Counted from the first letter of the stretch, positions 2,296 through 46,919 are shown. The stretch: 64,000 bases of DNA from Vicinamibacterales bacterium (GCA_963746535.1 CAVVBP010000007.1:880444-944443); one strand, 5' to 3'. Translations and numbers: made by a program. Notes: generated by a model from the letters alone, not told the origin.

Positions 2296-2536
2296 GTTGG
2301 GTTAGCGTTGCTGCCGCGCGAATCCGAAGCTCCGGGGCCGGACGCGCGCTGCGATGCCGCGGCGGACCGCGCGACGCGAGGACACCCACTTCGCCATTCG
2401 TCCTCGCTCGATGCCCTCGAGCTTCTCGCGCGGTCAGGCGTCACCCGTCGGCCGCCTTCGCCCTTCGACAAGCTCAGGGCGCCCCGAGCGAAGTCGAGGG
2501 GCGCACGGCTTCGCGCCGCAGCAACGCCAACCCAAC
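2296..2536. repeat. Structured ~200-nt dispersed element, copy 1 (carries an extra ~44-nt hairpin insertion)
   Basis: Outer arms 2296-2313 and 2519-2536 pair at 17/18; core CCGCGCGAATCCGAAGC...GACGCGAGG...CCTCGCTCGATGCCC...TCTCGCGCGGTCAGGCG...TCGGCCGCCT...CACGGCTTCGCGCCGCAGC is shared with copies 2 and 3. Confidence 0.85.
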
Positions 2537-2665
2537 TATCGCGACGCGCGACACGCGAGACGATTCTGAAAAGTGCTCTCTAGACTATAGACTAGGAGCT
2601 CAAGAGGGCCAGGAGAATTCAAACAGAAAACTCCTAATCTTCTGAACTTCTGTTTGGCTTCGTCG

Positions 2666-4630
2666 CTACTCGACGAGGCCGAACGCGAGAATCGCGTCTC
2701 CCGCTGCGATGGCAATGTATTCCTGACCGTCGAACTGGTATGCCATCGGCGACGCATGCCAGTTGGTATTGGCCTGGAAGGACCACAGCGTTTTGCCCGT
2801 GACGGCGTCGGCCGCGGCGAACGATCCGCTGTCGTCGCCGAAGAAGACGAGACCGGTCGCAGTGGCGAGCGTGCCACCCCAGGAGGAGCCGGTGCCGGTT
2901 TGCGGCAGCTCCCACTTCCGCTTGCCCGTCTGAAGATCGAGCGCGTACAGCAGCCGCTGCGGTTTCGGGTTGATGTCGACGCGTTGAGTCCCACCCCCGT
3001 ACGCCTTGCCCTGTTCCCATTCCACCGGGCGCTTCGTGTAGATCGAGCACTTCTCGAATACCTGAATGTAGTACAAGCCGGTCGAGGGGTTGTAGGAAGG
3101 GGAGAACCAGTTGGTCGCGCCATCCTGCGACGGGCAGACATGCGTGCCTTCGGCGGTCGGCTCCTGATTCGGCGTCTTGATCGGCTTTCCGTCTGCGCCG
3201 ATTCCGCTGGCCCACGTCAGGTTCTTGATGAACTGGGTGGCCAGCAGAAGCTTTCCATCCGCGCGGTCGAACACGTAGAAGAACCCGTTGCGATTCGCCT
3301 GCACGACCAGCTTGCGCGGACGGCCTTCCCAGGTGGTGTTGATGATCATCGGCGTCTCGGTGGCGTCCCAATCCCAGAGATCGTGCGGGGTGAACTGGTA
3401 ATACCACTTCAGCTTGCCGCTCGCGAGATCGAGCGCCAGGAGCGAGTCGGAGTACAGATTGTCGCCGATGCGTTCGTCGCCGTTGTAGTCGGGTCCGGGA
3501 TTGCCGGTCGGCCAGAAGAGTGTGCTGGTTTCCGGATCGTAGGTGCCGGTGAACCAGGCATTCGCGCCGCCACGATCGAGGCTCGTGCCCTTCCAGGTGT
3601 CCCACGCCGGTTCGCCGCGTTTCGGCAACGTCAAGAAGCGCCAGACTTCTTTTCCGGTTGCCTGATCGAACGCGGCCACGAAGCCCAGCGCGCCGTTGTC
3701 TCCGCCGCCAGTTCCGGAAATCACCAGACTTCCCGCGGCGAGCGGCGCCGAGGTGGCGCCGTGATTCAAGCGCCAGTCGGCCATCTCGACGTCCCACACG
3801 AGCCGGCCGTTCGCACGATCGAGCGCGATCAGGTGTGCGTTGTCGGTCACCATGAACACCTTGTCGGCGCTCAGCGCCACACCGCGATTGATGCCGCTCG
3901 CCGCGTCGCCGGCGAGGCCGGTGGATCGCGCTCGCAGGAATCGCCAGATCTCGCGGCCGTTGCCGGCGTCGAGCGCATAGCACTCGTTGGCTTGCGTGAC
4001 GTACATCACGCCGTCGGCCACGACGGGTGTGCCTTGCAGCCGGCCGGCGTTCGGGATCCTGAAGATCCATTTCGGCGCGACACGCTTGACGTTCGTCCTG
4101 TCGATCTGTTTGAGCGCCGTATAGCGGTTGCCACCGATGTCTCCGTTGTAGGTGTTCCAGTTGGTCTCGGACGTCACCTCGCGAAATCTGCCCGGACCGG
4201 CACTGCGCAGCAAGTGGATGCGGTTGTCGTCGGCGCGCACCTGCGCGTCTTCGGATCCTTCATTGAGGACCGTGCCGTCGAGCGATCGACCGTTGGGCAG
4301 CACGAAGCTCTTGCGATAGGGCTGGAATCCACCGCGGGGCCGGAGCGTCCGGACGAAGGCCATCAACGGCGGCAAATCCGTATCGCTGACGCCGATCGCC
4401 GGCATGCCACGCGCCGGCAGACCCTCGCGAATCAGCGTCGTCAGTTGCGGGTCCTGCAGATTCGCGAGCGCGCGGGTGATGGCGGGCGCATGCTCGCCGC
4501 CGTTGCCGTCGGCGCCGTGGCAGGTACCGCACTGGTCCTCGAAAATCCTCTTGCCGGGCGGTTCCTGGGCCCAGACCGGAGATGACAGCGCGATACAGAT
4601 CGCGAAAATTGAGCCGGAAAATCGAGCCAT
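2666..4630 (-). CDS. Secreted PQQ-dependent dehydrogenase (alcohol dehydrogenase-like beta-propeller) with N-terminal cytochrome c domain
   Basis: Signal peptide, CGTCH heme motif, PQQ propeller repeats (YALDAGNGREIW, LALDLASGKLKWYYQ, YALDLQTGKRKW), TGNPGP and HDLWDWDA. Confidence 0.9.
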   Translation of the reverse strand: MARFSGSIFAICIALSSPVWAQEPPGKRIFEDQCGTCHGADGNGGEHAPAITRALANLQDPQLTTLIREGLPARGMPAIGVSDTDLPPLMAFVRTLRPRGGFQPYRKSFVLPNGRSLDGTVLNEGSEDAQVRADDNRIHLLRSAGPGRFREVTSETNWNTYNGDIGGNRYTALKQIDRTNVKRVAPKWIFRIPNAGRLQGTPVVADGVMYVTQANECYALDAGNGREIWRFLRARSTGLAGDAASGINRGVALSADKVFMVTDNAHLIALDRANGRLVWDVEMADWRLNHGATSAPLAAGSLVISGTGGGDNGALGFVAAFDQATGKEVWRFLTLPKRGEPAWDTWKGTSLDRGGANAWFTGTYDPETSTLFWPTGNPGPDYNGDERIGDNLYSDSLLALDLASGKLKWYYQFTPHDLWDWDATETPMIINTTWEGRPRKLVVQANRNGFFYVFDRADGKLLLATQFIKNLTWASGIGADGKPIKTPNQEPTAEGTHVCPSQDGATNWFSPSYNPSTGLYYIQVFEKCSIYTKRPVEWEQGKAYGGGTQRVDINPKPQRLLYALDLQTGKRKWELPQTGTGSSWGGTLATATGLVFFGDDSGSFAAADAVTGKTLWSFQANTNWHASPMAYQFDGQEYIAIAAGDAILAFGLVE

Positions 4631-4890
4631 TTCGAGTCTCCTCGCTGTGATGGGGGCGCAATCTTACCCTTGGGGGCGACGCTAGACGATCGACGTGGCA
4701 CTGCGACCGTGCGCCTCTTTGTAGGACATGGGCCGACTTGACGCGATCTGCAAGTGTATTCACACTGCACACTTCTTTCTTACCTTACATCAGCAAAACG
4801 TTCGACGTTCGGACCCAGGTGGCGCAATTGGCGCGGTGTGGCAATTCGGTGTCCGTAGCGGTCGTGGTGTGCGTTCCGGAGGCGATGGCT

Positions 4891-7800
4891 ATGAGAGCAT
4901 TGTGCTGGGCATCTGTCGTTGTGCTTTGCGGCGCCGTGCATCCAACAGATGCAGTGGCGCAACCCACCTTGTCGGTGAACGGCGCGCCAGGTTCCGGAGC
5001 CGGTGACGGTCGTCGCCGGTTCGACGACCGCGGTCTTGGTCGCGGGCGGACCTGGTGCGCCCACTGATTGGATTGCCCTGTAGCCCACAGGGGCTTCTGA
5101 CAATGCGTACCTGGACTGGCGCTATCTGAACGGCGCGACCGTCGCACCGGCGGTCGGCCTTACGGATGCCACGGTGACGTTCAACACGCCGGTCGTGCCC
5201 GGTGCCTACGAGCTTCGTCTCTTCGCAAGCGATGGTTTCACGCGACTCGCCACCAGCGGCGTCGTGACCGTTGTCGCCTCTCCCGCTGAACTGATCGTGA
5301 ACGGGGCTTCACCTCCGGCCGCTGCAGCCGTCAGCGCCGGAACCCTCATCACCGTCGATGTGAACAACGGCCCCGCCAATCCGGGTGATTGGGTCGCCCT
5401 CTATGCGGCCGGCGCATCGGATGGAGCCTATCTCTCGTGGAGGTATCTGAACAATTCGACTGTTCAGCCCGCACATGGGTTCCGTCACCTCGACGTTGAC
5501 GTTCCAGGCACCGAGCGCGTCGGGCAGTTACGAATTCCGGTTCTTCGCGGCGAACAGCTTCGCGCGACTGGCAACCAGTACGACAGTGGTCATCAGCACC
5601 TCCACAGCGCAGCTCGTCGTCAACGGCATAGCGCCGCCTGCTTCCGTCACCGTGGCCGCGGGGGCCGTGGCAACGGTGACTGTGTCCGACGGTCCGGGCA
5701 ACACCACCGATTGGGTGGCATTCGCACCTGTCGGTGCCGCGGCAAATGCGTATGTGGATTGGCGCTATCTCAACGGAACCACGGTGCCGCCGCAGACCGG
5801 CGTCCCGGCGGCGACGCTGACCTTCGCGATGCCCTCGACCGTCGGCGCGTACGAATTCCGGCTGCTTGCGAACGACAGCCTCGACCAGATCGCGGCGAGT
5901 GGAACGGTCACGGTCCTGGCGCCGACCGCGCAGATTGCGATTAATGGCATCGCTCCACCCACGGGCGTTGCCGTTGACCCCGGCGCCGCGCTGACGGTGA
6001 ACGTCACCGGCGGGCCGGCCAACGCCACAGACTGGATTGCGCTTTCGTTCGCAAACGCGCCCGAGTCGAGCTACGTCGCCTGGATGTATCTCAACGGCAG
6101 CACAGCCGCACCGGCGGCGGGGCTGGCATCGGCGACCCTGTCGCTTACTCTCCCTTCATCACCAGGGATCTACGAGGTGAGGCTCTTTGCCAGTGACGGT
6201 TACACCCGTCTCGCGACCAGCAGCCCGATCTCCGCTTCCTCGTCGCCGGCCGAAGTCACCGTTCGCATGACGAGTCCGTTCCCGGGGACGACCTTCAATC
6301 TGCCCCCAGGCATCGACCTGTCGGCCGACGCATCGGCGACCAGCGGAACGATTACGAGCGTCGATTTCTTCGTGGACGCGGTGTTGGTCGGCAGCGCCAC
6401 GGCCAGTCCGTACACCGTGTCATGGACATCCCCGTCAGAGGGACAGCACGTACTGACAGCGGTCGCGATTCACAGCACGGCGGCGCCCGTGACATCACAG
6501 CCAGTCCACGTCACCATCTCGGGGCCCGATACCCAAGCCGGAATATTGGGTGCCCCGATTGTCTCACCGCCCCCGGGATCGTACGGCCCTGGCTTGACGG
6601 TCACGCTTACGGCGGCGGCCGGCGCCGCCATTCGTTTCACAACGGACGGCTCAGCCCCCAGCGTCGCCTCACCGGTCTATTCCGGCCCCATCTCCTTGAC
6701 CGCGGCCGATACCGTGGTTCGCGCGCAGGCGTTCCAGAACGGATGGTACGATAGCAATGGGACGCGTGCGTCGTATCACCTCGATCTCGAGGCGCCGACG
6801 ATCTACGCCACTCTCTCCCCGTTGCCGAATGGCAACGGCTGGAACGCGACGAGTCCGGTGACGATCACGTTCGTGTGCAGCGATCCCGCCGGCGTGCAGG
6901 TCTGTCCATCTCCAATGACCATCGTCCAGGAGGGCGTGACCGAATTCGTCTCAGGGAATGCCGTCGATGCCTACGGTCACACGAGCACTACCGCAGTGAC
7001 GGTGAAAATCGACAGCATTGCCCCAACCGTCAGTCTCAATACGGCTCCAGAGAACGGAACGACCGTTTCGGAGTCATCGATCAATATTGGGGCTGCCGTC
7101 GGCGATGTGCTGTCTGGGGTTACCGCCGTCAGGTGTAACGGGGAGCTCGCCGCGGTTGACAACGGCTCCGCGGCCTGCGTCGTCTCGTTGCACCCTGGGC
7201 TGAACTCGGTGGTGCTCAGCGTGACGGATGCGGCGGGCAACACGGCCTCTGTCGGCCGTCGAGTCACCCATCAGGCTGTCCCCACCGCACTGGCGCTCTC
7301 ACCTGAGAGCCGGAGCCTGTTCATCGGCGAGTCCAGCACACTGATCGCGACCACCGAGTCTGGTCCGATCAACTCTGGTGTGACATGGAGCTCGAGTAAT
7401 GATGCCATTGCGTCGGTCGCCGAAAACGGCGCTGTCACGGGCCATCTCCCCGGTGAGGCGACCGTTACGGCGACGCTCGATGCCCTCTCGGCCACAGCGA
7501 CACTACGGGTCATCGCGAGCGGCTCGACGGAAGTCCGGTGGACCATTTCACCTATACCTGGACTAGCGGCGACGCGCCCCATTTTCGCGAATCGCGTGGA
7601 CGATGCCGGACCAGACCTGTTCGACGTCAACACCGCGTTTGAGGTGCCCACCGTCGTGCGCGCGCTGCGCCATGACGGCACGCAGGTGTGGAGCGCGACC
7701 GTCGAGGGCACGCCGATGTTCGGGGACATATTCGGTGGTCTGGTCCTGCGGGACACCGAATGGAGGTCGCTGACGCGCCTGGGCGGCTCCGAGGAATCGG

Positions 7801-9449
7801 CACCGTGGCGATACGAATCGATCGGGTACCTTGACGAGAGGCCGGCTCAAGCGGCCGACGGCACCATTTATCAGATCGAGTACACGGAGAGCGACAATCC
7901 TCAGAGCTATGTTGTGGGCCTCGATGGCCTCACGGGAACCGTCAAATTCCGGGTGCCCCTACCGGCGTCGACTGGGCATCGCGACCGCCCGGTGTGTGGT
8001 ATTTCGATTCCCGCCGTATTCGGCGATGCGGGTTATTGCCTTCCCGTGCCGTCCGTGACGCAGCAGAGTGGTGCGCCCAGCGTGTCGTCACCGATCATCG
8101 GTCTCGACGGTGAGGCCTATGTCGGTCTCGTCGAAAGACACGAAGACTGGCGCCAGCATGGTTACGTGAGCTGGTCGTGCGATTTCAGTTGTTCGTCAAT
8201 CCCACCGCAGCCGATTCCGCACGAGGCCAGCGGCCTGGGCACGTTCAGCCGGTCGACCACGGTCAAGCTGCTGCGCATCGAACCTGAAGGGCTGGCGACG
8301 ACGCAGACACTCTGGCAGACCTCCACGGCGGGAGCGGATACGCCAGAACGGGTCTACAGCGCCGATGAGACGAACGATATGAGTGAGCTGGTGATTGACG
8401 AAGAGGGTGCGGTGTTCTTCCAGGTCACAGACGTCAGCAGTCGTTGGGGCGCGGACTCTGAAGACCGCGTGAACGGTCAACACATGTGCCCGACGCAACC
8501 GGTATTCGACCGGTACTGTTATCACGTCGAAGACGAAGCGAGCACCCTGCGTATCGCGCGGATCGAGGGTGCGAACGTCACGACTCGAACGCTCGACACA
8601 CAACCCGGGGGGTACTATTTCGGGCCGTGGTCGCTCAAGCTGATCGGGGACAACCACACGGCTTTTCTGCAGCACGAAACAGGAATCGAGGCCATTAGCA
8701 CGCAAACCCTGAGCATGAAATGGACGATTCCGAGCGAGGGCTGCTGCGAAAATCTCACAGCCATGCGCGACGGCGGCGTCGCCATCATGGGGGATGATGA
8801 CATCTTGCGAGCTATCGACGATGGCGGTAATTCAACAGCGATGGGAAATAGACCAGCATTCGAGGCCGTCCAGGCAGCTCCCGGATACTGGGTTGGCTTG
8901 GCTCCAGGGATGAGCGGTATGCAGCTCGTCTCCGCGTTTGGTCCGTCGATCTTGGAACCTTCGTATGCCTTCTGGAGTCTCGGTGGCAATTTTCGTATGA
9001 CGAACGCGGCAGAGTTCATAGATTGGCCAACCGTGAGAGTAAATTGCCGTCCTATAGCAGAAACTCTGAATATCCTCAATCACTGCTATATCGTCGCCCG
9101 CCAGAGTAGAGAGCACACCTTCTACATTGGGTCCGGCCCGACTGGACAGCCGCCGCCCTACGGACTCAACGAAGCAAACCTTACGCTCACCATGTCACAG
9201 CAAGATGCCAATGCGCCATGGACGTTCTATTGGCTCAAGAGATCTGTCAAGCCGGAGGTAATCCCCTGTATGGCTCAGGCACGACTCAACTGGAACTCGG
9301 CAGCCATTGAGTACAAGCCCGATGGTCCGAATAGCAATACTTTTGCAAGCTGGCTCGTTCACGAATGCAAGGCGCCTGTGGTGCCGTCCCCGTTGGCGCT
9401 CACTCCCGGTTGGTACCACTTCATTGACTTTGGAGTGCCGACATTTTGA
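4891..9449 (+). CDS. Large secreted multi-domain protein: four tandem Ig-like repeats, further Ig/CHB_HEX-like and Big_2-like domains, propeller-like region and a distinct C-terminal domain; 5' part broken by 2 frameshifts and an in-frame TAG at 5081
   Basis: GGAGG RBS 8 nt before ATG 4891; signal peptide MRALCWASVVVLC; repeats DW(I/V)AL...Y..W.YLNG; IRFTTDGSAP; VTWSSSNDAIASV; C-terminal HCYI...GPNSNTF. Reconstructed from ORFs 4738..5067, 5174..5944 and 5475..9449. Confidence 0.75.
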
Positions 9450-10345
9450 GATGTTCAAGTCTCGCGCACGGCTCATTTCGGCTGGCTCTGGCGATCACAG
9501 GTGCGGCCGGGCTCATGGGATGCACTTTAGAGCCCTCACCCCGCGCCGACCTGACGCCGGCCATCGCACAAGGATTCTGTGTCGTGCAGTTTCAGCGTGG
9601 AGGGATCGACATTCTTCCTCTTGATGGATCTCAGCGAAGAGAGGAAGGCATGTTGTCGACCACTTCCTCCAACGTGAGCGGTCGCGTCGCCCCAGATGGA
9701 AGCTACGTCGCTGTCGTTTATGCAAGTTCGGTTGCGGGCGTCATGCTTGACGGACAGACGTTGTGGGAGTTTCCCACGAACGGGCCCGCCAGACCCGCGA
9801 TCAGTCCCGATGGGAAAAAGGTTGCGGCTACCGATAACACGCAACTCCTCGTCTATGACATTCCGACGGGCCAACTTAACAAATGGACAGTTACCGGCGA
9901 TCGTCCAGACTGGTCTCCGGACATGAGCCGTCTCGCATATGACCACGATGGTCACGTTTATATCTTCGATCTGGCCAAAGGAGCCTCTGTTCCACTCGCC
10001 GAGGGGAGCGACCCGTCCTGGGCCCCAGGCGGCCGCGCTGTAGCCGTGCGGTCCGGTCGCCACACATTCGATCTCATTACGGTCGACGCACGTGTGCGCA
10101 CCCGACTCTTCGAGGGTGACAACACCTGGACGCCGCGTTGGTCGCCCGACGGGGAATGGATGTCGTATGGAGCCTCCGGCGGCTATCGCTGGTGGTCGCT
10201 CAGCGAACGATTGGTAGAACCGCGCCAGGTCATCGTCCGGCATGTCAAGACTGGTGCCGAGGCGGTAGTAGGCATCACCCTGCTAGGGAATAATCGCGAT
10301 TTCACGTGGGCGAAGAGCCCAGCGCTTTGCAGAGGAGTTTCTTGA
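9446..10345 (+). CDS. Lipoprotein with TolB/PD40-like beta-propeller repeats
   Basis: Lipobox GLMGC; repeats PAISPDG, PDWSPD, PSWAPGG, PRWSPDG; start overlaps the upstream stop codon. Confidence 0.8.
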   Translation: MRCSSLAHGSFRLALAITGAAGLMGCTLEPSPRADLTPAIAQGFCVVQFQRGGIDILPLDGSQRREEGMLSTTSSNVSGRVAPDGSYVAVVYASSVAGVMLDGQTLWEFPTNGPARPAISPDGKKVAATDNTQLLVYDIPTGQLNKWTVTGDRPDWSPDMSRLAYDHDGHVYIFDLAKGASVPLAEGSDPSWAPGGRAVAVRSGRHTFDLITVDARVRTRLFEGDNTWTPRWSPDGEWMSYGASGGYRWWSLSERLVEPRQVIVRHVKTGAEAVVGITLLGNNRDFTWAKSPALCRGVS

Positions 10346-27083: not shown

Positions 27084-27147
27084 TTCACAGAAGATCGGAA
27101 GATCAGAAGAAATGTTTTAGAGAGCAGTTTTGGATTCCCTGTAGTAC

Positions 27148-27170
27148 GTAGTGTCCGGCTTCAGCCGGAC
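27148..27170. repeat. GTAG-tagged REP-like palindrome
   Basis: GTAGT-GTCCGGCTTCAGCCGGAC. Confidence 0.8.
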
Positions 27171-27193
27171 CGGACAAGGTGGTCGTCCCCCGC

Positions 27194-27404
27194 GGCAGCT
27201 GGATTGGCAGGGCCGCCGCGCGCAGCCGAAGCTCCGGGGCCGGACGCGCGCTCCGAGGCCCGACGAGGGCCGTCCGACGCGAGGTCCCAGTCCTCGCTCG
27301 GTCAACCTCGCTCGATGCCCAGAGGCGTCTCGCGCGGTCAGGCGTCACGGGGGATCGGCCGCCTGCACACGGCTTCGCGCCGCAGCCCTGCCAATCCAAC
27401 TGCC
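27194..27404. repeat. Structured ~200-nt dispersed element, copy 2
   Basis: Outer arms 27194-27213 and 27385-27404 pair at 19/20; shared core with copies 1 and 3. Confidence 0.85.
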
Positions 27405-27496
27405 GCCGCGACGCTACACGAAAATCGAAACCGCTCTCTAGATCTTTTGTCTTCTGATCTTTTGATCTTCTGTTATGTCGTAGGAACCAGCAGGCC

Positions 27497-28851
27497 TCAC
27501 TCGAGCTGCTTGTGACAGTATTCGCAGTCGGCGCTGATGGTCGATCCGTCCTTGGCGGCGTGCGAGTCGTCGTGGCACCGGAAGCAGCCGTTTGACGTGA
27601 CGTGCCCCTTCTGGTCGGGATAAAAACCCCACGTGACGTTCATCGTCGGGAACACGTTGCGGCGATACACGTCCTGGAAGGCCCTGACCGCGCGCCTCAG
27701 CTCCTCGTCGCTCGAGCCGGCCTGCTTCTGATAGAACGCGCGCAGACCTTCATCGATCGCCTGGTCGGCCGCCTCCTGGCTGGGATAGGACGCCTTGACC
27801 AGCCGTACACCTTCGCGCCGCGCGAACGGAAGCGTGCGGCTCACCTGTCCGGCCGCGATGGCGTTGTCGACGGCTCTCTCGGGTGTCGCCGAGATCGGAT
27901 GGCCCACCGTGTTGTGACAGTCGATGCAATCCATCACCCGGCGCTCGCCCGCGCTGATCGTCTGCTCGGACGTATCAGGGGCGACGTATTCCTTCACGTT
28001 GCCCGCGGCGTCGGTGACTTTGACGTACGGAATGGTCTCGTGACGTGGGTCCGTTGCGACATACTCGATACGAACGGCAGGGCTTGCATGCCAGTGGATC
28101 GCGCGCGTCGAGGTCGTGGAGCCCGGGTTCACGTGCAGCTGCAGCACCGTGGCGGTCTCTGCGTTCGCTTCGTCGTCGGCATATTCGCGAATCACGCGCA
28201 GCCGATCGCCGGTCCGGCGACCCGGCTGGTGGCAGCCGGTGCAGGTCATCGCCTGTGCACCGGGACCCATCTGAGCCCCCGGTGGAACTGGCCGTGGATA
28301 GGTATTGGTTGCCACGTGCGCGAGCTGTCGCACGCCCGAGAGCTTGGCGTGAAGGAACCCCACGGCGCCCTCGCCAATATGACACTCGACGCAGGGGATT
28401 CGCGCGTGCGCCGACGCGCTGCCAGGCCGTGTGCTGCGCCTGCATCGGCGTGTGGCATACCTGTCCGCAGAAGGTCGGCGATTCCATCCAGTGCAGGCTG
28501 CCGTACCCCGCGAGAAGGATGATGACGACGTTGACGGCAGTGAGCGCGGTGATGACGAGCGCCGTCCGGCGAACGCTGGTGCGCCGGAAATCGAGAACGG
28601 GCCAGTCGATGACGGCTTCAGGGTGGCGCGCCAGCTCGCGTCGCCGGAGCCGCACACCCACCGGGATGAGGAGCAGTCCCAGCAGGAAAACCGTCGGGAG
28701 GCCGACGAAGACGACGAGACCTGCGTAGGGATTCGCGAGCATCCCCGCCAGCAGCGCGATCAGCAGCGCGATGAAGACCACGGCCGAGGCCGTGGTCACC
28801 AGCACGCCGACGATCGCAACTGGATGCGGAAAGCGCTTCTCGCCGCGTCAT
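27497..28851 (-). CDS. Membrane-anchored multiheme cytochrome c, NapC/NirT-like N-terminus, 6 heme motifs; 2 frameshifts
   Basis: Three hydrophobic segments; MESPTFCGQVCH, CVECH, CTGCH, CIDCH, CFRCH, CEYCH; joined from ORFs 27975..28805 and 27497..28657. Confidence 0.85.
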
Positions 28852-33455: not shown

Positions 33456-37087
<3,632 letters not shown>

Positions 37088-37169
37088 GTTCGGTTCCTCA
37101 ACCTTTCGTAAGACCTCCGAGACACCGGAGATCATCCGGAATGCCAGAGGGCTACTAGCCGTCCGGGAT

Positions 37170-38394: not shown

Positions 38395-38403
38395 TCCGTG
38401 GCT

Positions 38404-39282
38404 TCACTCGCCGCGCAGGATCGCCTCGGCCGCTTTGAGCTCCTTGCGCTTGGCGCGATCGAGCTTCGGAAACTTCAGGTTGAGCCCCTCGAGCGCTTCG
38501 ACCACCGCCGCCGCGACGACCAGGCGCGTAAACCATTTGTGGTCGGCCGGCACGACATACCACGGCGCGTCTGATGAGCTCGTGTTCTGAATCATGTCTT
38601 CGTAGCAGCGCATGTACTGGCCCCAGAGCGCGCGCTCCCGGGCATCACCGGTCGAAAACTTCCAGTTCTTGTCAGGTTGTTCGATCCGCTCCAGAAACCG
38701 GCGCTTCTGTTCCTTGCGCGACACGTGCAGGAAGAACTTGCGAATCACGATACCGTTCCGCGTGGCATAGCGCTCGAACCCGTTGATGTCCTCGAACCGC
38801 TCTTTCCAGATGCGTTTGGTGACCAGCTGTTTGGGGAGACGCTGATTCTCCAGATACTCGGGACGCACGCGCACCACCAGGGTTTCCTCGTAGTACGAGC
38901 GATTGAAGATCCCGATGCGCCCGCGCTCGGGCAGGCAACGACTGGTCCGCCACAGATAGTCGTGGTCGAGTTCCTCTGTCGACGGGGCCTTGAACGAGTA
39001 CACCTGGCAGCTCTGCGGGTTGACGCCGGACATCACGTGTTTGATCGTGCCGTCCTTCCCGGCCGCGTCCATGGCCTGAAAGATCAGCAGCACCGCATAG
39101 CGATCCTGCGCGTACAACTTGTCCTCGAGCTCGCGCATCCTGTCGATCCCGCGCTGCAGCCACTTCTCGGCCTGCTCGCGGGACTTCAGGCTTCCCGTGT
39201 CGCCAGGGTCGATGTCCTTCAAGCGGAAATGTCGTCCGTCATTGACCCGGAACGGTCTGCAGAACTTGTCGGATTTTGACAT
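38404..39282 (-). CDS. ppk2: Polyphosphate kinase 2 family protein
   Basis: IFQAMDAAGKDG, SFKAPSTEELDHDYLWR, IFNRSYYE, WYVVPADHKW; start set at MSKSD. Confidence 0.93.
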   Translation of the reverse strand: MSKSDKFCRPFRVNDGRHFRLKDIDPGDTGSLKSREQAEKWLQRGIDRMRELEDKLYAQDRYAVLLIFQAMDAAGKDGTIKHVMSGVNPQSCQVYSFKAPSTEELDHDYLWRTSRCLPERGRIGIFNRSYYEETLVVRVRPEYLENQRLPKQLVTKRIWKERFEDINGFERYATRNGIVIRKFFLHVSRKEQKRRFLERIEQPDKNWKFSTGDARERALWGQYMRCYEDMIQNTSSSDAPWYVVPADHKWFTRLVVAAAVVEALEGLNLKFPKLDRAKRKELKAAEAILRGE

Positions 39283-39360
39283 AGGCGGCGGGGCCGGAGT
39301 GTACACGATATGCCAGGTCTCGTGACAAACTAGGGCGGGAGAAACGAAGAGCGCACCGAC

Positions 39361-40366
39361 ATGACCACGAAACGATTTCGCCGAGTGGCGGCCGGGGTGT
39401 TCGCGATCGCCGTCGCGTCGCTGGCCGCGTCTGCACAGACGACCCAGTTGCGTCTGGTGTCGACCGCGTGGCCGCCGTTTACGAACGAAGCCGGGCAGCC
39501 CCGCTTCGCGCTCGATCTGGTCGAGGCGGCGCTGGGTCGCATCGGCGTCACGTCGCAGACGCTCATTGTGGATGCGGCGAAGTACACGCCGGCCCTGCTG
39601 AGCGGGTCGTTCGATGGCAGCGCGGCGGCATGGAAGGATCCCGCGCGCGAGCGCGCGCTGTTGTTCTCTCAGCCGTATCTCGAAAATCGGCTCATCCTCG
39701 TCGGGCGAACGGGCGCCGACGTGTCCGCCGCGGCGCTCGACGGGCCTCAAAGGCAAGCGCGTCTCCATCGTCGAAGGTTACGCATACGGTGCTGCCCTCG
39801 ACAATGCCGGTATCACGTTCGTGCCGTCACGCAACGAGGAGGACAGTCTCCGGCAACTGCTCAACGGAGAGGCCGACTACACGTTGATGGACGAGATCGT
39901 CGTCCAGTACATCGTGGACCACCATGCCGACCAGGCACGCACCAGGCTGCAGATCGGCACCGTTTCGTTGCTGACGCGCCCGCTGCACCTGGCCGTACGG
40001 CGCACGCATCCACAAGCGAAGTCGATCGTCGATCGCTTCAACACACAGATTCGAGCGATGGTGGCCGATCGCACCTACCATCGTCTTCTGCACGTTGACT
40101 GGATCCGGGCGGATGTCGACGGGGATGGACTCGAGGAATACGTGCCGCGCACCGACAGTTCGGGGCCGGCCGAGCCCGAGCGCGCGTACTCGATCTTTTC
40201 AGACCCACAGAAAAAGCCGCAGTCCAGGCCGGGAGAGAAGCGGTACCTGTTCGGCGGCTCGGTCTACACGGCGTGGACCGCCATCCCTGAGAAGTACAAG
40301 AACTACGATCCTCTACGCCCGGAGCCCGGTATCGCCACGGTCCCGATCTACCAGTTCACTTGGTAA
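39361..40366 (+). CDS. Secreted solute-binding protein (family 3-like) with a C-terminal extension; 1 frameshift near 39740
   Basis: STAWPPF, LFSQPYLENRL, LKGKRVSIVEGYAYG, FNTQIRAMVADRTY. Confidence 0.75.
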
Positions 40367-40438
40367 TCTGTCACTCGAGGTTCGAGATCCTGGAAACTAG
40401 AAACTAGAAACTAGAATCTAAAATCTAGAGCCTCGAGA

Positions 40439-41492
40439 CTACCGAGGCGTGTAGGTTTTCGTGACATTGTTGCGGCTGTTCGTGATCGTGTACCTGCCGT
40501 CGGCGGCGATCGACGCCTTCAGGTAGTGCCCCGTGCACGCCGCTTCTTCTTCGAAGTTCGCGATGTAATCATCCCTGGTGTTGCGCTCGCGCTCGGTCAC
40601 GAGCGAGAGATGAAGCTGCCAGAGGTCCTCCAGCCCGGGTGCGTTCTTGACGACGTCGAGGTAGCTGCCGATGCCGCCTTTTCGCGGCCCGTTGTTCATG
40701 ACGGCCACGCGAGCGCCAAGCGAATGCACGAATGGTGGCGCCCCTGAGAGATCCATACCGTGATGGTTCACCTGCAGGAGGTCGATCCGGCCGAGCCGGT
40801 TCACCGGGCAGACCATCTCGATTTCCTTGTTCCATGTCAGGTCGCCGAGATCGAGGAATCTGAACTTGCCGGTACTGCAACAGGAATCCGAGGCTTCGGC
40901 CGTTTTCGCTGTTGTCCGGCTTTTTCAACTCAGGGTTCGCGCACATGGGAGAACTGTTCGGGCCGCCGCCGTTGATCGGTGCGGCAATCAGCTCGCCGTT
41001 GGTCGCCGCAATAGTGATGTCGAGCCCCTGGAGCGGAATCTTGTCGCCAGGCTTCGGCTGCGCGCGCTTGCCCTTCGAGGCTTCCTGATAGATCGCCCAC
41101 TCGTCGGCCGCCGGACCCGGGCGGTTCTCGACCGTGTCTCCATGATCGAGGTAGTGGTCGATGGGCATGAGCTTCGATAGCGCGCCCACGCCGCCGACAT
41201 GGTCGGCGTGAAAATGGGTGATCAGGAGGTAGTCGAGCTTTTTCAGCCCCGCGACCTTGGTAGCGACCTCGTGGATACGCCGGGCATCGCGGTCGTCCCG
41301 GCGCCAGCCGGTGTCTACGAGCAGCGACTGGCCGGACGGCGACACGATCAGCGTCGCCCCGCCGCCCTCGACATCGATCCAGTAGATGTCCAGCGCGCGC
41401 GCCATGCCGCCTCGCTGCGCGGCGAGCATCACCGTCGCGAGGGCCACCAGCGCCAGCGCCGACGCGATGCGCGATCGAATCGGGCGCGTCAT
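40439..41492 (-). CDS. Secreted metallo-beta-lactamase-fold hydrolase (ComEC-like C-terminal type); 1 frameshift near 40870
   Basis: IDVEGGGATL, LLVDTG, THFHADHVGG, GDLTWNKE, VNHHG, MNNGPRKG. Confidence 0.85.
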
Positions 41493-42394
41493 CGTTTGCT
41501 CAACTCGACCGTGTCGAGCTTCCCTTTTTCGATCGCGATGCCGATGATCATCAGCTCGAGATCCGCCGTCCCGTTGTTGACAATCGAATGCGGCTGGTCG
41601 GGAAGAATCGGCACACCGTCGCCCTTGCGGATCGTGGCGGTCTCGCCGCCAACGGTCACCTCACCGCTGCCGTTGAGGACGTAATACACCTCGCCCACGC
41701 CGGGATGCTTGTGCAGCCCCTCGGAGCTTGCCGGCGTCACGATGAGGTGATCCATGTAGCTCCAGTTGCTCAGAAACACCGACGGCGGAAGCGCGCGGCG
41801 ATATTTCACGCTGCCCTTGCCGCCCCGGTAGCTCTGCAGCGTGTCTTTCGGGCCCATCAGCTTCTCGTCGAGCCGCATCGTCATGAAGACCGGAATGGGA
41901 TCTTTCGCCGCACCGACGCGCGAGTCCTGCAGATCGAAGGCGTCGTACTCGCCGCTCGTGGTGGCCACGTTGATGTTCATGAACTCCACGGGCCGATCGG
42001 TCGGATTGACGATCGCATGTGAATGACCCATGCGGACCGGGGCGCCGACCGTGCCTTTCAGCAGGGAAGCCCGGCCGTCGATCGTGAACTCGGCCTCGCC
42101 GTCGAAGATGACGAACATCTCCTCGTTGCGATTGTGAAAGTGATGGCCCACGCCCCCTTTGGGTGCGGTGATCTGGCAGCGGTGGACGAAATTCAGCAGG
42201 GGAATCGCGTTGCGGGGCACGAGCGTCATGCACGCCATGTCCCCCTCGCTGCCATGCGAGCGGCTCAGACGGTAGCGGCCCGGATCGGTGTGGCCGATCC
42301 GTTCACTCAACGCGGGCGGCGCCTGTGCGGACGCCACGAGCGTCATCGCGACGGTCGCGCAGATGATGGCCAATGGCCGCATGCCGATGCTCAT
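41489..42394 (-). CDS. Secreted bicupin protein
   Basis: Signal peptide; two cupin motif sets HHFHNRNEEMF...HSH and HKHPGVGEVYY...PHSI. Confidence 0.85.
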   Translation of the reverse strand: MSIGMRPLAIICATVAMTLVASAQAPPALSERIGHTDPGRYRLSRSHGSEGDMACMTLVPRNAIPLLNFVHRCQITAPKGGVGHHFHNRNEEMFVIFDGEAEFTIDGRASLLKGTVGAPVRMGHSHAIVNPTDRPVEFMNINVATTSGEYDAFDLQDSRVGAAKDPIPVFMTMRLDEKLMGPKDTLQSYRGGKGSVKYRRALPPSVFLSNWSYMDHLIVTPASSEGLHKHPGVGEVYYVLNGSGEVTVGGETATIRKGDGVPILPDQPHSIVNNGTADLELMIIGIAIEKGKLDTVELSKR

Positions 42395-42514
42395 AGGAAG
42401 CCCTCGCTGGCTATCGTATCCACAAACGTACCTTCTGGCGGGGAAGCGGCGCGGATGATACCATGCCGTCCGTTCTTTTCCGGTCCAGTCTGTTCGAATG
42501 ACGGAGGTGCGGTG

Positions 42515-43480
42515 ATGAGAGCTCGACGGTTGTCGGCGCTCGGCGTGTTTCTCGGCGTGTGTGCGGCCATCTCTGTGGCGACCCCGGTTGAAGCTCAGTT
42601 CGGGGGCTTGATGAGGAAGGGGAAGGAGGCTCTGAAGGAACCCGTCAAGGATCCGAGAACATCCGAGGCCGCATCCACCTCCACTTCAAATCCGTTTGCC
42701 GACCCCGCGATTGTCTTCATCACGCAGGATCAGCTCGGACGGTTCCAGAAGGGGCTGCAGCACGAGGTGACCCAGCGCAACGCCCTCAGGAAGCAGCTGG
42801 CGTCGCTCCAGACGCGCGAACAGTATCAGGCGTGCACGCAGGGCGCCGCCATGTCGCCGGAAACGATGAAGCTCATCCAGGACTTTGCCGATTCGAGCGC
42901 GAATCTCCCCGCCGACCAGATGATCAAACGCCAGCAGCAGATGTTCACCGAGATGGCCGCGATGGTGGAGAAGAAGTGCGGCATCGATCCACAAAAGGTG
43001 GAGAGCTCGCGTGCCGAGCGCTTGCGCCAGATCGAGGCGGAGGCGTCCGATATCGCCATGCCGCCGGGATACAAAGCCCCCCCGCAGGCGCGGCTCGAGC
43101 GCGAGACCGTTGACTGGGCCGCGATGTGGAACGACTCCGCGGCGCGCACGCCGATCGCGCTGAATGTGCACGCGCCGAAGTCTCCCCTGTTCGGCGAGGC
43201 CCCGGCCGCGCGTGCTCAGACAGTGAATGCGCGTCCGTTCGCGCGGGCCTACGGCATGCTGAAGGAGCGCGTCCCGGTGTTCTGCGGCAAGCTGGCCGAG
43301 AAGGCACCGCTGACGCCAACCACGATCACCGTCGGCACGGAGAAAATGAGCGTCGTCAAGATTCGTGGTTCGGGACAGGATTACGTCTTCCGCCAGGATG
43401 AGGCCGACGCCCTCACCCAGGGGTGCTCGGGTGTGATGGCGCTGATGAACGCCATTTTCGACGACGTGCAGAAGCAGTGA
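42515..43480 (+). CDS. Hypothetical secreted protein
   Basis: Signal peptide ending VEA-QFGG; GGAGG upstream; no recognisable domain. Confidence 0.65.
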   Translation: MRARRLSALGVFLGVCAAISVATPVEAQFGGLMRKGKEALKEPVKDPRTSEAASTSTSNPFADPAIVFITQDQLGRFQKGLQHEVTQRNALRKQLASLQTREQYQACTQGAAMSPETMKLIQDFADSSANLPADQMIKRQQQMFTEMAAMVEKKCGIDPQKVESSRAERLRQIEAEASDIAMPPGYKAPPQARLERETVDWAAMWNDSAARTPIALNVHAPKSPLFGEAPAARAQTVNARPFARAYGMLKERVPVFCGKLAEKAPLTPTTITVGTEKMSVVKIRGSGQDYVFRQDEADALTQGCSGVMALMNAIFDDVQKQ

Positions 43481-44262
43481 CGTTTGCCGCCGTCAGCCTT
43501 GCCGTCGCGCTCAGCGCCGCCTGGCAGATGGTCGCTCCCGGTGTCTGGCAGGCCGAGGCGCCAATGGCTTCGGCCGGGCCGCTTGCCCCGGTGCGTGCGA
43601 TCGCGATCCGGCTCGACCCTTCAAAAGTGCGGTTCACGCTCGATCACGCCTCGCGCGATTACGGAATGGTCGGCACGTGGACTGTCGACCGCATGCCGGA
43701 AGCCGGCGTGGTCGCTTTCAACGCGGGACAGTTCAGTGGTGGCATGCCGTGGGGATGGCTGGTGCGGGACGGCATCGAATCGCAGCCGCCCGGCTCTGGT
43801 TCGCTCGGGATGGCGTTTGTCGTCGATCGCAGCGGAAGGGTCTCGCTTGCGACGCCTGACGAACTCCCCGCGATCCGATCGAGAGCCACCCAGGCGTTTC
43901 AGTCCTACCCCGCGCTGCTCGTCGGCGACGGTCAGCTGCCGCCGGAGCTTCGGGCGGCGGGCCGTGGCGTCGATCTGTCACATCGTGATTCGCGGCTCGC
44001 GTTGGGATTGATGCCCGACGGTTCGGTCGTCGTGGTGATCACGCGCTTTGATGCTGTCGGGAAGCCCGGTGAAACCGTCCCGTGGGGACCGACGGTTCCG
44101 GAGATGGCGGCGCTCATGAAATCGCTGGGATGCCGCCGGGCGATGATGCTCGATGGCGGGCTCTCGAGCCAGCTTGCCGTACGCGGGCGCACCGGGTTGT
44201 CGCAATGGAAGAACTGGCGAGCCGTACCCCTTGGATTGATCGCCCTGCCAGCCACGCCTTAA
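43477..44262 (+). CDS. Phosphodiester glycosidase (NAGPA-like) domain protein
   Basis: AFNAGQF, RLALGLMPDG, LGCRRAMMLDGGLSSQL; GTG overlaps the upstream TGA. Confidence 0.75.
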   Translation: MTFAAVSLAVALSAAWQMVAPGVWQAEAPMASAGPLAPVRAIAIRLDPSKVRFTLDHASRDYGMVGTWTVDRMPEAGVVAFNAGQFSGGMPWGWLVRDGIESQPPGSGSLGMAFVVDRSGRVSLATPDELPAIRSRATQAFQSYPALLVGDGQLPPELRAAGRGVDLSHRDSRLALGLMPDGSVVVVITRFDAVGKPGETVPWGPTVPEMAALMKSLGCRRAMMLDGGLSSQLAVRGRTGLSQWKNWRAVPLGLIALPATP

Positions 44263-44417
44263 GAGCCCTGCAGGCTTCGTAGGATGCACGACATTCCGTA
44301 TTGAAATGGCCCGCTCGGGGTGCGTTCTCACGTGTTTGCTGAGATTTTCGCGCGAAACGGGCCCTTGGATCACGGCCGTGTTCTTGCTGGAAAGAGTCCG
44401 CGATCTTTAACCCGGCG

Positions 44418-46244
44418 ATGCGGACCTCCCCCAGACACCATCGGCTCGGACGGTGGCTGTTGGCCGCCCTCGCGGTCAATATCCTGTTTCCCATCACGAC
44501 GGCCACCGCGTCGGACGGCGCGAAGCAGGTTCTCGTGCTCTACTCACTCAGAAGAGACGTGCCGGCAGCCGATGTCGGCGAAGCGCAGCTGCCCAGGATC
44601 CTCAGGAACAACGTTCCCGGTGGCGTGGACTACTACTCGGAATTTCTCGACCGGTCGAGATTCCACGCCGACTACGCTCCGGCGCTCCGCGACTTCCTGC
44701 GGTTGAAATACGAGGGGCAGACCTTCGATCTCGTCATCGCGTTCGGCGATGCCACGGTCACGTTCATCGAAAAGAACCGCGACATCCTGTTTCCGGAAAC
44801 GCCCGTCGTCTTTTTCTCGAGTCAACCGCTGATACGTCCGGCACACTCAACCGGCGTCGTGGCCGAACCGGACGTCGCCGGCACGATGCTGATGGCCACC
44901 GAGCTGCAGCCCGACACGCGGCAGGTGTTCGTCGTCAGCGGGGCTGAGTCTTCGGAGCCGTCGTTCGAGAGCATCGCGCGGGCCCAATTCAAGTCGTTCG
45001 AACCGCAATTGACCTTCACGTATCTGACGGGTCTGACCAAACAGGAACTCGAGCCCAGGCTGGCGACCCTGCCCGAGCATGCCATCGTGTATTACCTGAA
45101 CGTCGAGCGAGACCGCAACGGACAGAATTTCCATGCGCTGGAGTTCCTCGACTGGGTAACAGCGGTCTCGCGCGCGCCGGTGTACGGCTGGATCGATTCG
45201 GCTATGGACCACGGAATCGTCGGGGGGAGCCTGAGGGATCAGGTGGCCGAGATACAGGCGGTTGGTGAGCTGGCCGCTCGGGTATTACGAGGCGAGAACC
45301 CCGAGAGCATTCCCGTGGTCTCGCCGAATCTGCACGTCAGGCAGGTCGACTGGCGGGAGCTGCGCCGTTGGGGCATCAGCGACGCGCGACTCGCCGGAGA
45401 TGTGCGCGTCAAGTTCCGGGAACCTTCGGCCTGGGATCGGTACGGCCTTCACATCGTGGGTGCGGTTCTGCTGTTGATCGTTCAGATGGCGCTCATTACC
45501 GGGCTGCTGGTTCAGGGAGCGAGACGGCAGGAGGCGGAACAGCGGCTGCTGGAGAAACAGGACGAGCTGCGGACGAGCTACGACCGAATCCGCGATCTGG
45601 GCGGGAGGCTGCTGAATGCGCAGGATGACGAGCGTTCGCGGATTGCCCGGGACCTGCACGACGACATCGGTCAGCAGGTCGCCGTGCTGGCCGTGGATCT
45701 CGAACTGATGCGCACAGGCACGCGGGAAGCTGCCGGAGGCCTGGCCAGCGACGCGCTGAGCCGGGTGCAAGGCATTGCCAGAAGCGTGCGCGACCTGTCG
45801 CTCCGCCTGCATCCCGCCAAGCTGCGGCTCATTGGCCTGGCGCCCGCGTTGAACGGCCTGCAGCGCGAGTTCTCGCAAACAGGCATTTCCGTCAATATCA
45901 CGCACGAGAACCTGCCTCCAGATCTTCCGCACGACCTGACGCTGTGTCTGTTCCGGATCGTTCAGGAAGCGCTGCGGAACGCCGTCACGCACAGCAACGC
46001 GGGCGCGGTGTACGTGCACTTGAGTGGCAGCGCCACACGAATCGCGCTGACGATCGTCGACAACGGCACGGGGTTCGACGTCTCTTCAGCGTGGGGCAAA
46101 GGACTCGGGCTCCTCAGCATTCGCGAACGTCTGGACGCGCTTGGCGGCAGGCTCGAGATCTCGTCGGGCCCTGGCGTCGGTACGCGCATCGATGCCGATG
46201 TACCGCTCGAATCGATGGCCGGAGCCAAGACGGTGGCTGTGTGA
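44418..46244 (+). CDS. Membrane sensor histidine kinase (HisKA_3, NarX/UhpB-like) with a large periplasmic binding-protein-like domain
   Basis: Two TM segments; ERSRIARDLHDDIGQ; FRIVQEALRNAVTHS; DNGTGF; GLGLLSIRER. Confidence 0.9.
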   Translation: MRTSPRHHRLGRWLLAALAVNILFPITTATASDGAKQVLVLYSLRRDVPAADVGEAQLPRILRNNVPGGVDYYSEFLDRSRFHADYAPALRDFLRLKYEGQTFDLVIAFGDATVTFIEKNRDILFPETPVVFFSSQPLIRPAHSTGVVAEPDVAGTMLMATELQPDTRQVFVVSGAESSEPSFESIARAQFKSFEPQLTFTYLTGLTKQELEPRLATLPEHAIVYYLNVERDRNGQNFHALEFLDWVTAVSRAPVYGWIDSAMDHGIVGGSLRDQVAEIQAVGELAARVLRGENPESIPVVSPNLHVRQVDWRELRRWGISDARLAGDVRVKFREPSAWDRYGLHIVGAVLLLIVQMALITGLLVQGARRQEAEQRLLEKQDELRTSYDRIRDLGGRLLNAQDDERSRIARDLHDDIGQQVAVLAVDLELMRTGTREAAGGLASDALSRVQGIARSVRDLSLRLHPAKLRLIGLAPALNGLQREFSQTGISVNITHENLPPDLPHDLTLCLFRIVQEALRNAVTHSNAGAVYVHLSGSATRIALTIVDNGTGFDVSSAWGKGLGLLSIRERLDALGGRLEISSGPGVGTRIDADVPLESMAGAKTVAV

Positions 46245-46246
46245 CG

Positions 46247-46663
46247 ATGGTCGAAGAGGTCACCAGGTTGGTGCCCACTCAGCCGGTGCGGGTTCTTCTT
46301 GTTGACGACAACGAGGAGGTGCTCACGCGCGCGGCGGCGGTGCTGATGCCCGGTTGCATCATCGTGGGTTCCGCGAAGGACGGCCCAGCGGCGCTCAAGG
46401 CGGCCGCGTCGCTCCAGCCGGATGTCATCGTGCTCGACATCTCGATGCCCGGCATGACCGGCCTCGAGGTCGCCTCACTGCTGCGTAAGGCGCAATCGAC
46501 CGCTGCGGTCGTGTTCCTGACGGTCCATGACGAAGAAGAATTCGTCGATGCCGCGAAAGCGGTGGGCGGTATCGGTTACGTCATCAAGCCGCGCATTGCG
46601 TCGGACCTGATGAAAGCCGTGCAGGAAGCCAGGGCGGGGCGGCCGTTCGTCTCGCCGTTCTAA
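46247..46663 (+). CDS. Single-domain response regulator (REC only)
   Basis: VLLVDD, VIVLDISMPGMTG, FLT, YVIKP; no output domain. Confidence 0.88.
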   Translation: MVEEVTRLVPTQPVRVLLVDDNEEVLTRAAAVLMPGCIIVGSAKDGPAALKAAASLQPDVIVLDISMPGMTGLEVASLLRKAQSTAAVVFLTVHDEEEFVDAAKAVGGIGYVIKPRIASDLMKAVQEARAGRPFVSPF

Positions 46664-46727
46664 AACTCAGCGCTCTCCTATCCGGTTTTAGCCAAACTCA
46701 GGCGTTGTCGAGGACCCGCCGGCGCCT

Positions 46728-46919
46728 GGGTTGGTGTGGCTGCCGCGCGAATCCGAAGCTACGGGGCCGGACCGCGCTCCGATGCCGTCGAGGACCGCCC
46801 GACGCGAGGACACTGACTTCGCCTTTCATCCTCGCTCGATGCCCTCAGGCTTCTCGCGCGGTCAGGCGGGCAGGTGTCGGCCGCCTACGCACGGCTTCGC
46901 GCCGCAGCCACACCAACCC
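46728..46919. repeat. Structured ~200-nt dispersed element, copy 3
   Basis: Outer arms GGGTTGGTGTGGCTG (46728-46742) and CAGCCACACCAACCC (46905-46919) pair perfectly; shared core; degenerate REP (TCCGGTTTTAGCC) at about 46681. Confidence 0.85.

Follow-up and report, generated by a model that had tools for sequence, protein, structure and literature searches.

MITEs (miniature transposable elements with inverted repeats) that derive from IS630/Tc1-mariner elements or otherwise duplicate TA, e.g. Nezha of cyanobacteria and Correia of Neisseria, are non-coding units of 100-350 bp bounded by terminal inverted repeats (TIRs); they occur in tens of copies, lie in intergenic DNA near the ends of genes, and can be folded over their whole length into a long hairpin. 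TIRs together with a TA duplication at NTAN or CTAG are the signature of IS630/Tc1-mariner transposases, and REP (repetitive extragenic palindrome), ERIC and Correia repeats act as 3'-end or processing hairpins in transcripts. The REPs and REPINs of RAYTs (REP-associated tyrosine transposases) have been described by Bertels and Rainey (2011), and GTAG-tagged REPs as a class by Di Nocera et al. (2013, PMC3733652). In this study, we report the analysis of a window, i.e. the whole stretch of 64,000 nucleotides at C7:880444-944443 of a Vicinamibacterales metagenome-assembled genome (MAG; 6.11 Mb, 14 contigs, 64% GC), in which a reading of the sequence alone (the sequence-only reading) had noticed three multi-stem elements of about 200 nt. 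These three elements are, in our judgement, likely to belong to a nested family of non-autonomous mobile elements that is restricted to soil bacteria of the Vicinamibacterales and in which a conserved hairpin core is carried, together with a GTAG REP, by an outer shell that mostly ends in TIRs. No description of this repeat family was found in a literature search; the hairpin repeat family is undescribed, and the composite is otherwise of a known kind.

Direct evidence for insertion was obtained from the second copy. In a relative, L069, the orthologous locus has the same flanking genes, for glycogen phosphorylase and a NapC-like cytochrome, and lacks copy 2. Its uninterrupted ...TTTTAGATC... 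site reads ...GAAGAATTGTTT-TA-GATCTTTTGTCTTCTG... (also ...GTTT-TA-GATCTTTTG...), with a single TA, and the window reads ...GAAGAAATGTTT-TA-[27120-27438]-TA-GATCTTTTGTCTTCTG.... Comparison of the filled and the empty site therefore shows that the whole composite of copy 2 (shell, REP and core, 319 bp) was inserted in one piece with duplication of TA. Eleven further members of the copy 2 subfamily are 94.6-97.5% identical to it for 300 bp or more and so speak for a fairly recent burst. The features of the three copies are given below, where plus is the orientation used in the sequence-only reading, minus is its complement, and MFE is the minimum free energy.

2247..2269, plus strand: GTAG REP of copy 1 (from its sequence)
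2296..2536, minus strand: core of copy 1, long form (MFE minus -152.6 versus plus -148.0 kcal/mol)
2461..2500, no strand assigned: 40-nt mini-palindrome CCCTTCGAC...GTCGAGGG inside copy 1 (gap in the alignment to copies 2 and 3)
2537..2582, no strand assigned: right shell arm of copy 1, ...ACGATTCTGAAAAGTGCTCTC, then TA at 2581-2582 (match to the right TIR at C7:882999-883021)
27088..27117 (left) and 27441-27472 (right), no strand assigned: low-GC inverted repeat of AGAAGATCAG-type words around copy 2 (uninterrupted in L069)
27118..27119 (left) and 27439-27440 (right), no strand assigned: duplicated TA target of copy 2 (empty site)
27120..27438, minus strand: complete composite of copy 2, 319 bp, with left TIR GAGAGCAGTTTTGG..., REP, core and right TIR ...CCGCTCTC (TIRs and empty site in L069)
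27148..27170, plus strand: GTAG-tagged REP hairpin GTAGTGTCCGGCTTCAGCCGGAC on the left arm of copy 2 (REP family match)
27194..27404, minus strand: core of copy 2, a rod-like multi-helix hairpin including the GGCA/TGCC extension (MFE minus -142.7, z -6.8, versus plus -134.9 kcal/mol; member of the 39-sequence alignment)
about 46679..46697, plus strand: degenerate REP TATCCGGTTTTAGCCAAAC of copy 3, remnant of an old shell upstream (from its sequence)
46725..46922, minus strand: core of copy 3, short form (MFE minus -121.7 versus plus -111.2 kcal/mol)

Across the genome 22 TIR pairs were found, of which 21 are spaced 296-356 bp apart and one, spaced 97 bp, is a shell without a core (C11:368370-368466). 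The left TIR reads GAG(AG)CGCTTTTCA... or GAG(AG)CGCTTTTCAAATGTACGTAG..., and in the subfamily of copy 2 GAGAGCAGTTTTGG... or GAGAGCAGTTTTGGATTCCCTGTAG...; the right TIR reads ...TGAAAAGCGCTC(TC) or ...CTACACGATTCTGAAAAGCGCTC(TC), and in copy 2 ...CCGCTCTC, the sequence of the shell end being also given as GAGAGCGCTTTTCA. TA is present on both sides of 16 of the 22 pairs, and the reconstructed targets (TTAG 7, CTAG 6, CTAA 3) fit YTAR. The composite thus has the defining features of a TA-duplicating MITE, i.e. TIRs, TA duplication, a length of 300-360 bp, no coding content and many copies, except for an autonomous partner. The sequence-only reading had excluded a MITE on the ground that identical TIRs would not go with copy-specific arms, an exclusion that fails for copy 2, which is bounded by TIRs and TA, and for the genome-wide pairs. 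In this genome the ~320-bp composite is thus the moving unit, which inserts at YTAR and duplicates TA, and its cargo consists of a RAYT-type GTAG REP, optional mini-palindromes and the conserved core of ~198 nt. By analogy with such elements, we infer that an IS630/Tc1-mariner-type DDE enzyme may act in trans, with the transposase supplied from elsewhere.

Several observations count against this picture. Clean TA/TA flanks are lacking at six of the 22 TIR pairs, and no transposase with matching TIRs was found in the assembly, a search that did not extend to any IS630-family gene in the genome. TIR pairs spaced 0.5-3.5 kb apart were found to enclose no gene, the pairs up to 3.5 kb being neighbouring MITE copies only. 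Self-comparison of the genome for segments of at least 600 bp returned only paralogous genes and contig overlaps, with no insertion sequence and no repeated transposase-like segment, and clustering of the open reading frames (ORFs) within 2.5 kb of 148 copies gave ordinary paralogue families only, without a recurrent neighbour gene. For the core alone no clean empty site was found, and its independent mobility therefore rests on its occurrence in different shells. At the solo core at C12:732037, the closest relative, L064, carries an inverted and truncated copy, and other relatives differ in synteny. The L064 copy is an inverted 62-nt fragment (L064:2870-2940) beside a gene whose protein is 97% identical, which suggests palindrome-mediated inversion and deletion. 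Around the core of L014, relatives carry a non-homologous spacer of 600-800 nt with a 23S-IVP gene.

The target of copy 2 was the apex of an earlier low-GC inverted repeat between two convergent genes. The words of this repeat, CAGAAGATCAGAAG / CTTCTGATCTTTTGATCTTCTG, are also present at L069:2850-2935, and because it is conserved in this relative, which has no MITE there, the repeat is probably a bidirectional terminator-like hairpin. Similar arrays of AGAAGATCAG-type words flank other copies (e.g. C7:649127, C7:721382 and L004). The composite tends to land in AT-richer palindromes between convergent genes. Among the 65 full-length copies in the genome, 29 lie between convergent genes and one between divergent genes; that spacers of this kind offer AT-rich YTAR sites, and that hits in promoters are selected against, suffices to account for the position of the elements after stops and between convergent genes. 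In the window, the NapC/NirT-like multihaem cytochrome gene (27497-28657, minus strand) has an open frame of 386 aa, against ~450 aa in relatives, and close to the 5' end of this gene a frameshift introduced by sequencing is likely; the MAG was assembled from long reads, in which frameshift errors are likely, and the gene calls in this analysis are crude.

BLAST and nhmmer searches of the window's own assembly identified ~80 copies, which are distributed over both strands and include 65 of full length, where the sequence-only reading had counted three. Full-length cores have a short form (196-203 nt) and a long form (239-244 nt), in addition to the subfamily typified by copy 2. Within the genus the distribution is patchy: the family is present in five of 19 genomes, with 7 to >30 matches each, and gave zero matches in the other 14. 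Copy 3 has a counterpart, 96% identical, in the congener G016. Outside the genus, weak matches to the inner part of the core only were found in two other families of the order. A 22-base core motif matched 45 soil metagenome contigs, and 18 MAG loci were found in Vicinamibacterales MAGs; viral contigs scanned with the same motif gave 0 matches. The element is non-coding, with no conserved ORF and with indels between copies, and truncated, inverted and internally invaded copies occur. The number of copies, their patchy distribution, the lack of coding capacity and of a recurrent neighbour gene, and the empty site in a relative all agree with the earlier proposal of a non-autonomous mobile element. 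The window had 0 matches at gathering score in Rfam 15, and permissive searches of both strands returned chance-level hits only (E >= 0.58, up to 10); a match to a known family, which the sequence-only reading had proposed to look for, was thus not found.

Two loci outside the window differ from this general pattern. A complete composite of shell, REP and core was found at L009 (CAWGEM010000011.1, 6475-6724). The MAG concerned bears the label 'uncultured Alphaproteobacteria' and shares its sample of origin with a Vicinamibacterales MAG, and the finding reflects either a binning error or horizontal transfer. At C12:965054-965945, three REP + core units are arranged in tandem with a period of ~346 bp, which looks like local tandem amplification rather than three separate insertions.

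Re-examination of the three window copies confirmed their presence at 2296-2536, 27194-27404 and 46728-46919, and the pairing of the outer arms, re-counted from the sequence, was the same as first given: 17/18 in copy 1 (GTTGGGTTAGCGTTGCTG vs CAGCAACGCCAACCCAAC), 19/20 in copy 2 (GGCAGCTGGATTGGCAGGGC vs GCCCTGCCAATCCAACTGCC) and 15/15 in copy 3 (GGGTTGGTGTGGCTG vs CAGCCACACCAACCC). These arms had been called largely unrelated between copies. In a three-way alignment, however, they align column by column without gaps and are homologous, differing by substitutions of which many are compensated on the opposite arm. The inner segments GCTGCCGCGCGAATCCG/CGGCTTCGCGCCGCAGC and AGGCG/CGCCT were found in the copies as described, but GACCGCGCGA/TCGCGCGGTC is intact in copy 1 only, its 5' half being variant in copies 2 and 3 (GGCCGTCCGA, GACCGCCCGA). 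The hairpin GCGAGGA/TCCTCGC reads GCGAGGT/ACCTCGC in copy 2, a compensatory change that had been noticed correctly. Plus-strand folds of the three copies, compared with dinucleotide shuffles, gave z = -6.0, -6.0 and -7.6.

The ends first assigned to the elements were too narrow. Pairing extends outward through GGCA/TGCC and further, and in most copies it reaches the TIRs, ~75 nt upstream and ~40 nt downstream of those ends; in 53 of the 65 full copies the flanks are homologous beyond the core for 50-90 nt upstream and 35-45 nt downstream. The REPs that had been seen to precede the elements do lie 23-27 nt before cores 1 and 2, and a degenerate one lies at copy 3, but they belong to the same composite and are not independent neighbours. 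The left TIR of copy 1 is degenerate, its left end lying somewhere in 2230-2246, and this copy is 241 nt long because of the 40-nt secondary insertion at 2461-2500.

What the sequence-only reading had noticed is the inner core (198-241 nt) of a nested element. Most cores in this genome are enclosed by the ~320-bp shell, and about a dozen are without REP or shell or lie in a different shell. A second shell type reads TAATCCCGCGAGGCT...AGCCTCGCGGGATTA, and such flanks are found on many metagenome copies. The occurrence of the core without a shell, or in different shells, therefore shows it to be an older module that is separable from the shell. The extra sequence of long-form cores is a separate 40-nt mini-palindrome with 20 genomic matches. 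Among the matches listed, seven lie outside the full-length cores (65), although one of the seven (C14:402231) falls in a truncated core copy; some matches are flanked by a direct repeat of GCG. In other MAGs (L003, L004, L007, L017, L018, L033 and L056), a palindromic insert of ~50 nt (…ACCCGCCTACGCCAAGGCTCCGGCGCGTCCGCCGTAGCTTCGCGAAGGCGG…) lies between GAATCCG and AAGCT in the 5' part of the core and is a further small mobile palindrome family. The composite stacks four or five kinds of small palindromic elements.

Conservation of the fold was analysed in a sample of 67 non-redundant copies (<92% identity), to which this genome, further MAGs and metagenomes contributed. For the formal covariation test, 39 sequences of loci and of the window were aligned in minus-strand orientation. 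In the larger sample, an unbiased scan of column pairs recovered an 18-bp outer helix with 24 additional Watson-Crick pair types and a 6-bp continuation, while the inner helices show few additional pair types. RNAalifold predicted 60 pairs for the 39 sequences (-83.6 kcal/mol), of which 32 have double-sided changes. Standard pairs occupy 95.8% of cells, against 86.2% in shuffles, and double-change cells number 204, against 52 in shuffles; none of 500 shuffles reached either observed value. Sliding the partner columns by 1-3 reduced pairing to 34-39%. Inner-helix covariation, read on the minus strand, was as follows.

pair 47:185, minus strand: CG 23 / UA 13
pair 54:179, minus strand: GC 27 / CG 5
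pair 78:173, minus strand: AU 32 / GC 4
pair 111:132, minus strand: UA 19 / AU 13 (the change from GGA/TCC to GGT/ACC pointed out in the sequence-only reading)

In addition, pair 101:147 is U.G in 21 of the 39 sequences, G.U being tolerated even in inner helices of 3-4 bp, and mismatches of the inner stem are themselves conserved (C.C in 53/65 copies, T.C in 43/65). The strength of this result is lessened by the relatedness of the sequences and by the collection of part of the sample with the core motif, which inflates core conservation. The pattern shows that the core fold is constrained and that its helices are kept by compensatory change, in agreement with the constraint on structure first proposed; as to cause, selection would maintain a core that folds into a long irregular rod.

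The sequence-only reading had placed the fold on the plus strand. Half-changed pairs of the outer stem, read in the plus orientation, are A.C or C.A in 100 cases and G.U in 15, with a similar ratio in this genome (37:9) and in other sources (63:6), and the same half-changed pairs are G.U when read on the minus strand. For the same alignment, alifold gave -72.9 on the minus strand vs -52.9 on the plus strand. Of 119 copies, 109 fold more stably as the minus strand with RNA parameters (mean difference -8.0 kcal/mol) and 114 do so with DNA parameters; all three window copies behave likewise. G.U intermediates are almost confined to the minus strand, and the fold is therefore constrained in the single-stranded form of that strand; the constrained fold probably sits on the complement of the orientation first assigned. 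Among substitutions outside the outer stem, C>U (151) exceeded G>A (57), raw counts that are not normalised for base composition and do not show the direction of the bias in the stem.

This asymmetry bears on the proposal that there is no selection on the fold at all, which we regard as unlikely. Arms would then have stayed complementary through quasipalindrome correction by template switching, through recombination that swaps both arms between copies at once, or through co-evolution of the TIRs with one transposase, and the core would be conserved only because the family is young. Such processes occur or may occur in the family: the copy at C12:284678-284919 is a recombinant whose 5' and 3' arms come from two different subfamilies, the L064 fragment is a palindrome-mediated rearrangement, and near-identical subfamily members imply that much of the variation is inherited rather than independent. 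In S1-type shells, moreover, the termini, to which a transposase would bind, are no more than ~15 nt away from the paired arms. None of the three processes is strand-specific, however, and they therefore leave unexplained the roughly 6:1 excess of half-changed pairs that read as A.C on one strand and as G.U on its complement, seen both in the genome and in independent metagenome copies. The non-palindromic inner helices covary too, and the metagenome members vary at many outer-stem positions while keeping the inner sequence.

The REP on the left arm, by its sequence, is a bona fide RAYT-type GTAG REP: it was found to be a short palindrome with a GTAG tag, whereas the core (198 nt) was not. This REP family has 273 copies in the genome, 51 of which lie just upstream of a core, and a third member in the window (61694-61716, minus strand; GTAGTGTCCGGC family) has no core associated with it. 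A RAYT remnant cognate to the REP lies outside the window, at C14:94843-95353 (~94.9 kb), between REP doublets of the GTAGTGTCCGGC family. Compared with its paralogues it appears frameshifted and ~80 nt shorter, and its HUH motif is degenerate; it matches NCBIfam NF047646 (E = 1e-14) and is not recognised by Pfam. Three more RAYT loci (C2:~21.7-22.2 kb, C14:~619.3-619.8 kb and C4:~229.9-230.1 kb) each have a different REP family alongside. All four loci are flanked by their own short REPs (20-30 nt) and none by cores, which argues against the mobilisation of the core by a RAYT that had been suggested from sequence.

We also considered whether the core could be a REPIN-like or otherwise HUH-dependent element, whose folded strand is cut and moved by a RAYT or another Y1/Y2 enzyme, and find this very doubtful. 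At least four RAYT loci and abundant GTAG REPs are present in the genome, but each RAYT lies beside its own REP, cores lie beside none, and the RAYT to which the associated REP belongs is degraded. In three copies, inverted REPs lie on either side of the core and so form a REPIN with the core at its centre; a conserved GTAG-like tag is missing from the core itself, whose stem is bordered by 4 variable nt (GGCA, GGCT, AACA, GCCA). The strand specificity of the fold and the conserved mismatches of the inner stem would suit such an enzyme, as would the tolerance of G.T in DNA hairpins and the preference of DNA-parameter folds for the same strand, yet no bias in replication strand was seen (44 vs 36). 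The sole proven insertion has TIRs and a TA duplication, and to our knowledge HUH enzymes do not make TA duplications.

As to what the constrained single strand is, about one half of our confidence goes to RNA, about one third to folded single-stranded DNA (ssDNA) acting as the substrate of a structure-specific enzyme, and the remainder to the absence of any functional single strand. If the carrier moves as double-stranded DNA, RNA is the natural candidate: a stable rod would form in transcripts from read-through or in antisense transcripts and would serve as a 3'-end or processing hairpin, and a rod of this kind would make insertions tolerable or useful. Alternatively, a structure-specific enzyme would move the folded ssDNA core into the apices of palindromes, which fits the core's position exactly at the centre of unrelated palindromic shells. 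Evidence weighs on both candidates. A scan around copy 2 found no sigma-70-like promoter and no intrinsic terminator, and gene orientation does not favour read-through into the minus strand (tandem contexts 8 vs 3 the other way). An ssDNA form on the lagging-strand template is not favoured by the orientation of copies relative to GC skew (44 vs 36, p = 0.43), although this comparison is weak because most copies were spread by the shell, and an HUH gene flanked by cores was found nowhere.

We entertain only tentatively, and rate as somewhat improbable, the more specific proposal that the core of ~130-200 nt is an active module, either an RNA processed from minus-strand transcripts or the folded substrate of an apex-targeting mobilisation system. 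The latter would explain why the core always lies between flanks that are complementary to each other and otherwise unrelated, in at least two unrelated shells; if true, the apices targeted by the core would be the centres of MITEs and REPINs and terminator hairpins.

A role for the core in the host, as a structured non-coding RNA gene or a cis-acting RNA domain (3'-UTR stabiliser, processing site or small RNA (sRNA)) that owes its copy number to the MITE carrier, is in our view an unlikely explanation. It draws on the covariation in the outer helix and several inner helices, on the frequency of G.U on one strand, including pair 101:147 above, on an interior that is conserved across sources differing throughout the outer stem, and on the position of the element, nearly always downstream of genes. 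A host function is difficult to reconcile, however, with the absence of the family from 14 of the 19 genomes of the genus and with tens of copies of which some are truncated, inverted or internally invaded, and the orientation of the element relative to neighbouring genes is variable. The missing promoter and terminator signals around copy 2, and the lack of an Rfam match even at E up to 10, point the same way.

In annotation, a single nested repeat can now be assigned to the ~80 loci of this genome and to dozens in several related soil genomes, in place of candidate sRNAs or spurious ORFs; gene callers put ORFs of 60-100 codons in these elements. Small mobile palindromes are shown here to be stacked in one composite (a MITE of DDE type, a REP of RAYT type, mini-palindromes and the conserved core hairpin), and new insertions are seen to home to older palindromes between convergent genes, at their apex. 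For a dispersed repeat it is unusual to carry a strand-specific wobble signature, which speaks for constraint on one particular single strand, and the choice between RNA, ssDNA and no role for such repeats becomes an experiment in an abundant and poorly studied soil lineage.

Compared with known systems, the composite shares with the TA-duplicating MITEs all the features given at the outset. The most conserved part here, however, is not the termini but an asymmetric interior of ~130 nt, which at least two unrelated shells have in common; the covariation of the stems bears a strand-specific G.U signature, and no matching autonomous element was found. The left-arm REP agrees with described GTAG REPs in its GTAG tag, in a stem of ~7-8 bp with compensated variants, in its copy number (273) and in having a RAYT between REP doublets, and in REPIN hairpins, too, pairing is kept through changes on both arms. 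The core, in contrast, is ~10x longer, has no GTAG tag and is never beside a RAYT, and movement of the composite involves TIRs and duplication of TA. Integron attC sites likewise combine a conserved structure with free stem sequence and one folding strand with conserved unpaired positions, and the ends of the core fit GTTRRRY and RYYYAAC. Membership of this class was rejected, as the order of the R boxes is reversed, GTTRRRY being the 5' box here and the 3' box in attC, and as copies are dispersed singly and not in cassette arrays; the core is also 200 nt long vs 57-141 nt. HEARO/omega RNAs of IscB and TnpB and the bridge RNA of IS110 are, similarly, structured units of ~200 nt with many copies and covariation, but the present family has no Rfam match on either strand and no adjacent nuclease or recombinase gene, and its two ends pair together and leave no free guide segment. 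The core is therefore neither a REP nor a REPIN, nor an attC site, nor a known Rfam RNA, and the family is unusual in its asymmetric conserved interior with freely covarying stems, its strand-specific wobble, and its nesting of four or five kinds of palindromic element.

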